Positions 1 through 3,749 of a stretch of 64,000 nucleotides of DNA are shown in pieces. Source of the DNA: Promethearchaeota archaeon (GTDB lineage: Archaea; Asgardarchaeota; Lokiarchaeia; Sigyniarchaeales; SOKP01). Both the position numbers and the translations under genes were made by a program. The notes beneath the pieces were generated by a model. That model was not told the DNA's origin and ran no database searches. It worked only from the letters and a program-made list of their open reading frames with translations. Location: the NCBI GenBank assembly GCA_048940925.1, contig JBHLOC010000016.1:16989-80988 (forward strand), in the 5' to 3' direction. The stretch's first letter is position 1; each line of letters opens with the position of its first letter.

Positions 1-1794
1 GAAGAAAACAAAGATAGAAACACGATTATAAACGAAAGAAAAAAAGAAATTGAAAGTTTAGATATTGAAATTGAAAAGTTAATAGAGCTTAAAGATAAAT
101 ATTGGGATAATATATCTCAAATCCAAGATGATATCGAGAAAAAACAAACAGAATTAGAGACTTTAAGAATAAAGTTACAAGAATTACATGGAATTCAGAA
201 CTTATTCGAAAATATTACTGAAATTGATGAAAATATACAAAAATTAAATAGTGCAATAGATGATAAAAAGAATTTGATTATTAATACTGAAAATAGTATT
301 AATAAAATTCAAGAAGAGCAAAATTCTATTCAAAATGAAATTGATACTTATACTATACAAAAAGAAAAATTTTGGGAGATAACAGAAAAAATCCAGAAGC
401 AAATTGAAGATAAAAATAAGGAATTAGAAGAAACTATGGATCGTCTTAGGGCACTGGAAAATGTAATGAGAATTATCAATTCAATTGAGGATATTAAAAA
501 GGAAAATATTGATGCCAATAATAGTATTGAACAGTGTTTGAAAGATGTTGAAGTTTTCAACTCTCAAGTTGATGAAATTCAAAAAAATGTTGATCAAAGA
601 CAAGAAATAATAGATTCTCTTAGAAATGAAAAAAGTAAAGAATTGGAATTACAAAAAAAAGCCCAAAAGCAATTGAACAAGCTGAATAAAGATTTACAGA
701 AACACCAAGGAAAATTAAATGAATTAAATAAAAATAAAGAAAGAGAACAGAAAATTATAGAATTAGGTGTAGAGATACAAGACACTGAAAAACAAGTAGA
801 ATCCACTTTAAACGAATTAGAGAATTTTAAAGAAGAATTAAATAATGAAAATGAGAAAAAGGACAATAAGCAAAATGAAATTGATAATTATGTCCAAGAA
901 AAAGATCAATCATGGAAAAAACAAAAACAATTCCAAAAAATAATTACAGATTTGAAATCAGATCTGTCGATGGAAAATTCAAAAAAAAATAACTTTGAAT
1001 CTAAGAAAATTATATGCGCAGATCAAATAGAGACTTTGTTTCAACGATCCAAGGAATTTGGCTCATTACCAAGGGTAACCGAAGATTTATCAGAACCAGG
1101 GTTACAATCTGAAATAGTGGAAGCAACAAAGAAGAAGAAAGCTCTCGAACCTGTGAATTTAAAGGCAATTGAACAGTACGATGCAGTTAAAGAAAGATTT
1201 GATGAAATTGACATGCGTAGACAGACAATACAGAGAGAAAGAAAATCGATTTTAGATGCAATAGATAAAATAGAACTTGAAAAAACAAGAACATTTATGA
1301 AAGCATATCATGAGATTAACCGAGAATTTAGTATGATTTTTCAAAAACTCAGCCCTGGTGGTTCGGCCAAAATGATTTTAGATCGTCCTGATAAACCTTT
1401 TGAGGGTGGAATTAGTATTGAAGCTAGACCTCGAGGTAAAAAAATATCTAGCCTTGAAATTCTAAGTGGAGGCGAAAAAACACTCGTAGCACTCTCGTTT
1501 ATCTTTGCTGTTCAGGAATTTTATCCAGCACCATTTTATGTTATGGATGAGATTGATGCAGCCCTTGATGGTCCTAATGTGCATAGAGTAAGCACAGTAA
1601 TTCAAGAATTTTCAAAACAAGCACAATTCCTTGTAATAAGTCATAGGGAAGAAAATATTGTGAATGCAGACCGCATATATGGAGTTTCAATGCAGCAAAG
1701 TGGAATTACTGATATTTTTAGCGTAGATTTAGAGGAGGAGGCTAAACGACTCTTAGAGCTTGAAGATATTGAGCCTACAATTACAGAAAATTAA
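1..1794 (+). CDS. smc: Chromosome segregation protein SMC, C-terminal part (truncated by the window edge)
   Basis: The frame is open from base 1 (EENKDRNTII...) into ORF 274..1794. Long coiled coil, then PVNLKAIEQY, ABC signature LSGGEKT, Walker B/D-loop VMDEIDAALD and H-loop ISHR. Followed by scpA and scpB. Confidence 0.97.
   Translation, partial: EENKDRNTIINERKKEIESLDIEIEKLIELKDKYWDNISQIQDDIEKKQTELETLRIKLQELHGIQNLFENITEIDENIQKLNSAIDDKKNLIINTENSINKIQEEQNSIQNEIDTYTIQKEKFWEITEKIQKQIEDKNKELEETMDRLRALENVMRIINSIEDIKKENIDANNSIEQCLKDVEVFNSQVDEIQKNVDQRQEIIDSLRNEKSKELELQKKAQKQLNKLNKDLQKHQGKLNELNKNKEREQKIIELGVEIQDTEKQVESTLNELENFKEELNNENEKKDNKQNEIDNYVQEKDQSWKKQKQFQKIITDLKSDLSMENSKKNNFESKKIICADQIETLFQRSKEFGSLPRVTEDLSEPGLQSEIVEATKKKKALEPVNLKAIEQYDAVKERFDEIDMRRQTIQRERKSILDAIDKIELEKTRTFMKAYHEINREFSMIFQKLSPGGSAKMILDRPDKPFEGGISIEARPRGKKISSLEILSGGEKTLVALSFIFAVQEFYPAPFYVMDEIDAALDGPNVHRVSTVIQEFSKQAQFLVISHREENIVNADRIYGVSMQQSGITDIFSVDLEEEAKRLLELEDIEPTITEN
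52..1005 (+). repeat. About 3.5 tandem 90-aa (270-nt) repeats within the SMC coiled-coil arm
   Basis: Units start at 52, 322, 592 and 862: ESLDIEIEKLIELKDKYWDNISQIQDDIEKKQTEL / NSIQNEIDTYTIQKEKFWEITEKIQKQIEDKNKEL / DQRQEIIDSLRNEKSKELELQKKAQKQLNKLNKDL / DNKQNEIDNYVQEKDQSWKKQKQFQKIITDLKSDL. An identical 16-mer caaaatgaaattgata occurs at 331 and 871, 540 nt apart. Confidence 0.8.
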
Positions 1795-1818: not shown

Positions 1819-2817
1819 ATATCAGAAGACCAAAAGCCAGAAAAAAAGTATAATTTTAGCCAGTGGATAGTAAAAGATTTAAGAGAATTTGCCTCCAAGA
1901 ATAATATAAAAATTCCATCAAAATCTAAAAAGAAAGATATCATAGAATTGTTAGAAAAAATTGTATCACATCCAGAATTTGTTGATCGATCTGAAGAACC
2001 AGAAGAATTGGAGGAAGAGCTAATAGCAGATTTTGATGACGAGGATGATCTTGCTTTATTAAGGAAAGAAAAAATGGATCTAAAATTTTGGCAGCAACCC
2101 CCATTTTCCAGTTTATTGGATACAGAATTAGCTAAAGAATCAGATATAGCTTTTTATGATTTAGCTAGTCTAGTTGATGAATTTTTCGATAATATGCTTC
2201 ACGAAGATTTAATTAACTATAAGATCTCCGGAATTGCATTAAAGACTTCAGCATCATTACATCATTATAAAATTACTAGTATAATAAAAGAAGAAGAACA
2301 AATTCAAAAAAAAGAAGAATTAGAACGATATCGACAAAGACATAGCAGATCAATACCAAAAGCTCTACCCCAACCAATACAACCTAAAATGCAAATTGCT
2401 ACAAAGGAGGAATTGTTTGATGCTATGAGATCTGCTATAATAGAAGTAATGCAAAGTAAAGAAAAATTAAAAAGAAGGAGGATGCGAAAAGAAGAATTAA
2501 AACAACAAAGAATACAATTGAGATCAAAAGCTCAATTACCAAAAGAACTTTTAAAACACATTAGTGGAAAAGATCAGACAATTGAAGAGTTACATGAATC
2601 ATGGTATAACAGGATAAAAGCTACAATTAATTTAGATGATAAAGAAACGAGTTTTTTTGATTTGACAAAAATTATTAAAGATGAAGAAGAAACTAGCATA
2701 GGTAGGAAATTTATTTTAGTAAGGATGTTTTTAGCTTTAATGTTTTTATCCACAGGAGGTAAATTGAATTTATCTCAAGATGAAGATTTTAAGAATATAT
2801 CTATAGATTTAAAATAA
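1819..2817 (+). CDS. scpA: Segregation and condensation protein A (kleisin ScpA) with N-terminal HeH/Rho-N/SAP-like module; ORF track start 1948, proposed true start ATA 1819
   Basis: Kleisin N-domain (PPFSSLL...YDLASLVDEF...SGIALKTSASLHHYK) and C-terminal winged helix (FLALMFLSTGGKLNLSQDEDFKNISI). Lies between smc and scpB. The frame is open upstream to the TGA at 1810. Confidence 0.88.
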   Translation: MSEDQKPEKKYNFSQWIVKDLREFASKNNIKIPSKSKKKDIIELLEKIVSHPEFVDRSEEPEELEEELIADFDDEDDLALLRKEKMDLKFWQQPPFSSLLDTELAKESDIAFYDLASLVDEFFDNMLHEDLINYKISGIALKTSASLHHYKITSIIKEEEQIQKKEELERYRQRHSRSIPKALPQPIQPKMQIATKEELFDAMRSAIIEVMQSKEKLKRRRMRKEELKQQRIQLRSKAQLPKELLKHISGKDQTIEELHESWYNRIKATINLDDKETSFFDLTKIIKDEEETSIGRKFILVRMFLALMFLSTGGKLNLSQDEDFKNISIDLK

Positions 2818-2843: not shown

Positions 2844-3749
2844 ATGAATAATTTAAACAAAAATTTAAAGGAAAATCCAGAGGAAGAACCTCTCGAAAAT
2901 ATTGAAGAAATCTCTGAAGTAGTTTCAAATGAAGGGAATGAAGCAGAAGAAATTAAAGAGAGTGATCAACAGGTTAAAGAAGTTTCTATTGATGAAGTCA
3001 GTAAAGATGAATTCGGTATCGATGAGAAAGGAGATACTATAGAAGAAAAATATGGGGATATTGAAGATGAGTATATAGAACGTGAAAATTTAGAAAATCT
3101 TGATGAGAGTGTTGAACTTAAACCTTTAGAGAGTGAACCGCTAGAAGAAGTATCATTAGAAGTACAACTCAGAGAATTTCATAGGAACTTAATTGAAGCT
3201 TCATTATATGCTGCAGGCAGGCCTCTGAGCATCGAAGAAATTTCGAATAAGTTAGAAATATCTAAAAAAGAAGTAGAAGAATTAATTAATTTGGTTGCTT
3301 TTGATTATATGGAACGATCGACAGCATTAGTTATAGCTCAAATTGGGGATAGATACCAAATGCAGATTAAACCAGAATATACAGAAAAAGTTTCTAAATT
3401 TGCTAAAGGAGGAGCTATTGCAGAGCGATATTTAAGAACCTTGACTATTATAGCTTTAAAACAACCAATTTTAAAATCAACCGTGGTAAAATTAAGAGGA
3501 TCTGGAGCATATGAACATGTAAAATATCTAATTGATAATGGATTTATAGATGCTGTCAAAAAAGGAAGAACTCATGAGTTAACTACAACAGATAAATATT
3601 CTGATATGTTCGGATTGCCGAAAGATAAAATTGAATTGAAACGTGTTATGATTAAACAATTAGGGGTAGAAGAAGTTACAAGTAGCGAACAACCAGAAGA
3701 AATTGAAGATGAACAGAACATAGATCAAGAAAAATTAGACAAAGAATAA
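2844..3749 (+). CDS. scpB: Segregation and condensation protein B (ScpB) with long acidic N-terminal extension
   Basis: IEASLYAAGRPLS...YQMQIKPEY...LRTLTIIALKQPI...LRG...TTDKYSDMFGL are typical ScpB tandem winged-helix motifs. The first ~110 aa are Glu/Asp-rich. Confidence 0.93.
   Translation: MNNLNKNLKENPEEEPLENIEEISEVVSNEGNEAEEIKESDQQVKEVSIDEVSKDEFGIDEKGDTIEEKYGDIEDEYIERENLENLDESVELKPLESEPLEEVSLEVQLREFHRNLIEASLYAAGRPLSIEEISNKLEISKKEVEELINLVAFDYMERSTALVIAQIGDRYQMQIKPEYTEKVSKFAKGGAIAERYLRTLTIIALKQPILKSTVVKLRGSGAYEHVKYLIDNGFIDAVKKGRTHELTTTDKYSDMFGLPKDKIELKRVMIKQLGVEEVTSSEQPEEIEDEQNIDQEKLDKE

Follow-up and report, generated by a model that had tools for sequence, protein, structure and literature searches.

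How movements of the ATPase are passed along SMC arms across ~50 nm, and why these arms are so conserved in length, are open questions, and the hinge is usually regarded as essential for dimerization and DNA handling. A stretch of 64,000 nt from a Promethearchaeota archaeon of the Lokiarchaeia (contig JBHLOC010000016.1, or G000:C63:16989-80988 in our numbering; hereafter the window, meaning the whole of this stretch) opens inside an smc gene, and the question that this locus raises is what the arm of its Smc protein is built from and how such an arm changes length. An earlier note on the window, made from its letters, described tandem repeats of about 90 residues in the C-terminal arm and proposed that this archaeon has extended its condensin arms by duplicating whole superhelical periods. 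We have analyzed the complete protein and its Asgard relatives, and the explanation that we consider best, with a probability of roughly 80%, is that this is a condensin-type Smc of Lokiarchaeia in which the antiparallel arm is a chain of discrete homologous modules, its length changing by whole modules.

Results and Discussion

The first open reading frame of the window, nt 1-1794, encodes the C-terminal 597 residues of a 1484-residue Smc; the complete gene lies at G000:C63:14328-18782 (equivalent to L001:5328-9782), with a TTG start at C63:14328 found by extending the frame upstream. Residues are numbered here on the full protein, which equals the window residue plus 887, so that the window starts at residue 888. 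The protein is thus of unusual length, 1484 rather than ~1180 residues, as the oversized arm seen in the window had implied. The PVNL motif that marks the return to the ATPase head starts at window residue 384, as initially described, and no hinge lies upstream.

A strong 90-residue repeat is evident in the C-terminal strand of the arm. It consists of four ungapped units of 90 residues each, spanning residues 869-1228: C1 (869-958), C2 (959-1048), C3 (1049-1138) and C4 (1139-1228). On the + strand of the window, the last 71 of the 90 residues of C1 (888-958) occupy nt 1..213, the start of the unit at residue 869 lying upstream of the window, and C2, C3 and C4 follow at nt 214..483, 484..753 and 754..1023. 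The earlier note had counted about 3.5 copies starting at nt 52, 322, 592 and 862; these starts hold, and the count becomes four full units, the first starting 18 residues upstream of the window. To score the repeat, we compared the mean BLOSUM62 score at each lag with that in sequences shuffled so that every heptad position retained its composition; the highest z in these shuffles has a 99th percentile of 3.9. In the C arm, lag 90 reaches z = 9.0-9.8 and lag 180 reaches z = 7.1-7.4, and the best other lags (7, 83 and 97) stay at z = 5-6, so that lag 90 stands well above the other heptad-compatible lags. The top diagonal of the whole protein is likewise at lag 90, aligning 869-1133 with 959-1223 without gaps and with 69 of 265 positions identical.

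Profile comparison of the individual units with hhalign, using profiles built from 123 family members, gives the same result: C2 matches C1 with E = 2e-9, C4 matches C3 with E = 8e-7 and C2 matches C3 with E = 1e-4, the first two of these matches running over the full unit at an offset of exactly 90. Border motifs are common to the units, and tryptophan falls at unit position 54 in C1, C2 and C4 (residues 922, 1012 and 1192) with Leu 1102 at this position in C3; these are the Trp residues at 35, 125 and 305 and the Leu at 215 that were originally read from the window, all of which are verified. The three tryptophans (window nt 103-105, 373-375 and 913-915) vary little or not at all across the family. 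Were one unit to equal one superhelical turn, they would all face one side of the rod, and one may speculate that they form a stripe of contact with a partner arm.

The units also agree in their coiled-coil phase. A heptad-frame scan of the family profile finds the frame continuous within each C unit and interrupted by one-residue slips at 949-952, 1040-1041 and 1135, and all four units carry the same internal heptad frame; because there is one such slip per border, each C unit amounts to 13 heptads minus one residue. At the level of DNA the repeat has faded: neither Tandem Repeats Finder nor a nucleotide repeat finder detects a 270-nt array, and for this reason we regard the repeat as ancient. 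Nucleotide identity is slightly raised at lags 270 and 540, the two highest of all in-frame lags, and the 16-nt identity reported at nt 331 and 871, 540 nt apart, is exact, with a repeat of any 16-mer occurring in 4% of codon shuffles.

If the arm is an antiparallel hairpin, the N-terminal strand should carry a matching extension, as had been predicted, and it does so in the form of four units of 96-98 residues: N1 (237-334), N2 (335-430), N3 (431-527) and N4 (528-624). Here the lag-195 diagonal scores 220 (z = 8.0), lags 97 and 98 are also prominent, and hhalign aligns N3 with N2 at E = 1.4e-9, with N4 at 8e-8 and with N1 at 7e-6. The earlier note thus passes all three of the checks that it had set for itself, on lag 90, on total length and on the N-terminal strand.

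One could suppose that the 90-residue periodicity reflects not descent but a convergent structural constraint, or a bias of coiled-coil composition recurring once per superhelical turn. Coiled-coil bias does produce profile matches between the two strands down to E = 1e-5, no repeat remains in the DNA, and canonical arms have no homology to the units, all of which such an explanation would accommodate. It is nevertheless very improbable in our judgment: the in-register matches within each strand are ungapped over the full unit at E = 2e-9 and 1.4e-9 and share border motifs and the Trp position, lag 90 stands far above every heptad-compatible lag, the 16-nt identity falls at exactly two periods, a clean indel of one unit per strand separates sister families (see below), and canonical Smc arms, which are under the same physical constraints, lack such a signal.

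An AlphaFold2 model of residues 170-1290 (93-sequence alignment, mean predicted local distance difference test score, pLDDT, of 77) gives a single long all-helical hairpin. Loops at the unit borders (335-343, 436-441 and 535-538) interrupt its N helix, its C helix is unbroken across the units save for a kink at 951, and the apex loop or turn lies at 741-747. Because it is the N helix that carries the border loops, its units exceed the C units in length by about 7 residues. The symmetry of the hairpin and the positions of the breaks suggest that N4 pairs with C1, N3 with C2, N2 with C3 and N1 with C4. In the mechanism that we propose, a module would comprise one N unit (96-98 residues, that is, 90 residues plus a short loop) and one C unit (90 residues), forming a regular coiled coil of ~87 residues that is closed by a discontinuity level on both strands. 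Since the modules are homologous, they would have arisen by tandem duplication on both strands. One module would correspond to about one superhelical period, so that adding or removing a whole module would alter the length of the rod while leaving the rotational position of the tip with respect to the heads unchanged, and would keep the two strands in register; unit lengths would then be conserved to the residue because only whole modules can change. Preservation of hinge-head phase, as originally suggested, must in a protein without a hinge be read as preservation of tip-head phase.

The distribution of arm lengths among relatives bears directly on this proposal. With the C-terminal head as query, 300 of 400 Asgard genomes gave a match, and representatives were fetched. 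Smc proteins in the 300 matched genomes fall into three length classes, of 1175-1234, 1297 and 1473-1495 residues. The long form of 1473-1495 residues occurs in the window's own family and in the family of Promethearchaeum syntrophicum MK-D1 (f3), so that a cultured strain has the same form of Smc. The 1297-residue form belongs to one more family of this order, with a 'Sigynarchaeota' representative, and in other orders of the class and in other classes the Smc proteins measured have 1175-1234 residues. Aligned with the query, the 1297-residue form shows exactly two gaps, 528-624 (97 residues, N4) and 873-962 (90 residues, C1), which together are the pair of units adjacent to the tip. Hidden Markov models (HMMs) of the units recognize three copies on each strand of this shorter form, all in register. 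The repeat signal is the top or a near-top diagonal both in long-form proteins from the MK-D1 family and in the 1297-residue form; five canonical Asgard Smc proteins show no such repeat signal, their top self-diagonals being multiples of seven or N-against-C.

This comparison gives the strongest support to the earlier note's idea of extension by whole superhelical periods, the gaps of 97 and 90 residues in the sister form being clean. The expectation of quantized steps of about 90 residues across Asgard SMC proteins holds for one step within one order; no ladder was seen across the Asgard archaea. Within the long forms, unit length is nearly invariant: it is identical in all 123 long-form sequences except for a two-residue deletion in C1 of 41 of them, and C2, C3 and C4 are each 90 residues long in 123 of 123 family members. 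The apex loop, by comparison, varies from 16 to 23 residues. Sequence identity between the two long-form families is 12-44% in the units vs 79-84% in the C-terminal head.

There are thus four modules in the window's family and in that of MK-D1, and three, without N4 and C1, in the 'Sigynarchaeota' family, which probably branched earlier. In a tree of the heads, rooted with a canonical outgroup, the three-module family falls outside both four-module families with a support of 67%. In trees of the units, N4 groups with the N3 of the four-module families, and the N3 of the three-module family branches outside. Taken together, these placements suggest, with moderate confidence, that the tip-proximal module was gained after the split of the three- and four-module families. 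The opposite polarity, in which the four-module state is ancestral and the 'Sigynarchaeota' family has deleted one module pair, the change then being a shortening rather than an extension, strikes us as unlikely though still to be reckoned with. Given the sister position of the three-module family, a single loss costs no more steps than a single gain, and the tree of C units does not nest C1 among the C2 units of four-module families; against these points, the mid-arm of the canonical outgroup, at ~260-268 residues, is near three units, and N4 groups with the four-module N3 to the exclusion of the three-module N3. Whether by gain or by loss, both strands changed by one whole module.

To relate the modular arm to canonical arms, we compared the segments on either side of the units. 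The head-proximal segments 171-236 and 1229-1290 are recognizably common to canonical Asgard Smc, an HMM of 1229-1290 matching these proteins at the corresponding place with 22-39 bits; the part of this segment at residues 1229-1270, a non-repeat coiled coil with an AlphaFold2 helix break at 1238-1251, occupies nt 1024..1149 of the window (+ strand). Between the head-proximal segments and the hinge, a canonical relative has ~268 and ~260 residues on its two strands, which is ~2.8-2.9 units. Three modules thus equal a normal mid-arm, and the fourth is a true extension, to which the helical tip adds more; the demonstrable extension is the fourth module plus the helical tip alone. Searched with the unit HMMs, the five canonical Asgard Smc proteins give no arm match save a single weak one of 16.7 bits. 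From the helical residues within 171-740, minus loops, and a rise of ~0.148 nm per residue, we estimate that the rod from head to apex would measure ~80 nm in the four-module form and ~68 nm in the three-module form, vs ~47-50 nm in canonical Smc.

The step size can be set beside what is known of arm length elsewhere. When the arms of B. subtilis Smc were resized, viability followed a period of 91 residues, with a superhelical period of ~99 residues, and natural SMC arm lengths show modes at 238, 341 and 515 residues, with minor modes at 163 and 423, the modes lying ~100 residues apart (Bürmann et al. 2017, PMC5344682). The natural steps of 90 and 97 residues described here therefore fit the published periodic length rule. 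The sequence set of that study was seeded with hinge alignments, and for this reason hinge-less forms were probably not collected in it.

Several considerations weigh against the modular reading or against parts of it. That one module would equal one period follows from a numerical match (90 vs 91 and 99 residues). The register in which N and C units pair comes from the symmetry of the hairpin and from where its breaks lie, not from coordinates. Some N-vs-C profile matches reach E = 1e-5 from coiled-coil bias alone, and the weaker pairs within a strand (C2 with C4, N4 with N1) are therefore not independently convincing. The polarity of the three- and four-module states is weakly resolved, given 67% at the head-tree node and unit trees built on 90-100 columns. 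Finally, the unit HMMs miss canonical arms, so that the three-module arm might have come from amplification of one module, or canonical arms might themselves be cryptically modular.

The second departure from canonical Smc is at the apex. SMC_hinge (PF06470) has no match in the query (E <= 0.1) or in the tested f3 and f4 relatives (E <= 0.01), and a precomputed hinge match is present in 0 of the 120 homologues listed. In its place is a helical hairpin. Residues 684-850, encoded at L001:7377-7877 upstream of the window, are the most conserved part of the arm; large hydrophobic residues make up 0.33-0.40 of this region vs 0.22-0.30, its charge is about half, and no cysteine occurs in it in the family alignment, so there is no CxxC. 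Folded alone, residues 640-900 give a plain helical hairpin (pLDDT 84) with a turn at 744-747. The tip is internally duplicated, 684-737 matching 755-808 at lag 71 (hhalign E = 5.8e-9), and the loop between the two copies is variable across the family. A Foldseek search of the tip model against the PDB returned nothing at E <= 0.001, the top rows being generic helical hairpins (Smc arm fragments and chemoreceptors), and a profile search of 640-900 against PDB sequences found designed or generic coiled coils only. The tip hairpin may serve as a dimerization element by forming a four-helix bundle; prediction of a two-copy complex of the tip (650-850) scored 0.01, which gives no verdict either way.

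The hinge model is also weak in sister orders, at 26-43 bits, compared with 113-131 bits in other Asgard classes. Two sister-order Smc proteins, encoded at L013:1222-4788 and L014:1568-5125, are 1186-1189 residues long and match the hinge model with 43 and 26 bits. Such weak matches suggest that degeneration of the hinge had set in before its replacement.

Tip-like domains also occur outside Smc. A second protein family (P0132, P0137, P0138, P0144 and P0146; 921-1179 residues, no Pfam match) has such domains near the N terminus, with matches to the tip profile of E = 3e-33 to 3e-18; P0144 is DSAG12_01461 of Promethearchaeum syntrophicum. The domains lie at ~78-237, with a second copy at ~330-480 in the two sequences read, and in P0137 and P0132 they are followed by a middle region that does not look helical and by a Lys-rich tail, which is strongest in P0137. 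This family is absent from the window's own genome, where only the tip of Smc itself was matched.

The ATPase heads score as those of an Smc. Pfam SMC_N covers residues 3-1457 (E = 1e-36), and the ATPase motifs are all intact, with GPNGAGKS as Walker A, LSGGEK as signature and VMDEID as Walker B in a split ABC head with a Q-loop. The C-terminal half of the head, which begins with the PVNL motif, includes LSGGEK and VMDEID and ends at the stop codon, lies at nt 1150..1794 of the window (+ strand). The protein scores 593.1 with TIGR02168, above its cut-off of 567, and 621.4 with the archaeal-type model TIGR02169, below its cut-off of 729; Rad50 models give 90-108 bits, far below their cut-offs of 700-1087. 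Among solved structures the best matches are Smc heads from Pyrococcus (5xei, 409 bits), and the named homologues come from Lokiarchaeia/Promethearchaeota. On these sequence matches, the protein is a condensin-type Smc of Smc-ScpAB with true Smc heads.

The gene neighborhood is that of Smc-ScpAB as well, with the order smc-scpA-scpB kept and both partner genes downstream of smc on the + strand. The scpB gene, for the kite subunit, is at nt 2844..3749 (Pfam SMC_ScpB, E = 9.6e-34). Between smc and scpB, at nt 1948..2817 (the longest open reading frame with an ATG, GTG or TTG start), lies a kleisin-sized gene that we call scpA-like from its position; in Pfam it has no significant ScpA match, and a weak match to the C-terminal domain of Rad21_Rec8 (E = 0.039) is the only one. 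Elsewhere in the genome, outside the window, a second SMC-like gene at G000:C7:48645-52121 (+) has an open frame of 1159 residues with a divergent Walker A, GPNWSGKTS. It carries the sole SMC_hinge (PF06470) match in the genome, at 32 bits, and probably represents a paralogue related to SMC5/6. A search of the window's genome found no further condensin-type Smc.

These observations bear on the idea that the protein is not a loop-extruding condensin but a hinge-less tether or structural rod of the Rad50 or RecN kind, in which the modular arm is a spacer. The missing hinge would suit such a role, as would the occurrence of the tip domain in an unrelated protein family that has a Lys-rich tail and the presence of a hinge in the other SMC-like gene of the same genome. 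We consider it improbable: the heads score as Smc and far below the Rad50 cut-offs with their ATPase motifs intact, the smc-scpA-scpB order is kept in a genome with no other condensin-type Smc found, and units that hold their exact length at 12-44% sequence identity speak for a mechanical element that is tuned, not for a passive spacer. A fuller picture of a modular condensin, namely an order-wide, hinge-less but true Smc-ScpAB motor that dimerizes through a four-helix bundle at the tip and whose ~80-nm arms grow by matched modules of one whole period, is one that we hold only tentatively, and we would not yet bet on all of its parts being right together.

How the protein compares with known systems is clearest from its closest counterparts, the prokaryotic Smc proteins of Smc-ScpAB (B. 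subtilis, Pyrococcus). It has the same head halves, head-proximal coiled coil, antiparallel arm and adjacent scpA/scpB genes, but it lacks a hinge, its head-apex arm is ~1.6 times longer and is made of tandem modules, and it scores below the TIGR02169 cut-off. The engineered arms of Bürmann et al. have a like step (~91 residues there, 90 and 97 residues naturally here); the steps there come from length distributions and chimeras, whereas here a homologous module is present or absent in sister clades. Rad50/SbcC with its zinc hook, RecN and the 'hinge-less SMC' cluster of oceanic actinobacteria (PMC12153180) all combine an ABC-type head and a fold-back coiled coil with an apex that is not a hinge. 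The Lokiarchaeial protein differs from these in having no CxxC, in having condensin-type heads, in keeping ScpA and ScpB, and in belonging to an order-wide Asgard lineage. Another parallel is found in coiled coils of the tropomyosin type, which consist of near-equal repeats and tolerate only whole-repeat deletions (discussed in PMC5344682). Tropomyosin is a parallel two-chain coiled coil with a period set by actin subunits, whereas the Smc arm is an antiparallel intramolecular hairpin, so that each step needs a matched change in two distant parts of the gene. In the literature that we searched (Lokiarchaeota/Asgard SMC, hinge, coiled coil), neither a modular, repeat-built SMC arm nor a hinge-less Lokiarchaeial Smc is described.

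Conclusions

The best evidence for a periodic rule of arm length has so far come from engineered B. subtilis proteins; in these Lokiarchaeia, evolution displays the same rule directly. If the fuller picture given above is true, the order offers a natural experiment, in which the hinge fold and a fixed arm length would be dispensable for SMC function and whole-period geometry would be required. The defined module borders provide positions for arm-length grafts, and the protein itself offers a naturally hinge-less Smc for purification and imaging. It belongs to the archaeal group nearest to eukaryotes and is present in a strain that has been cultured.

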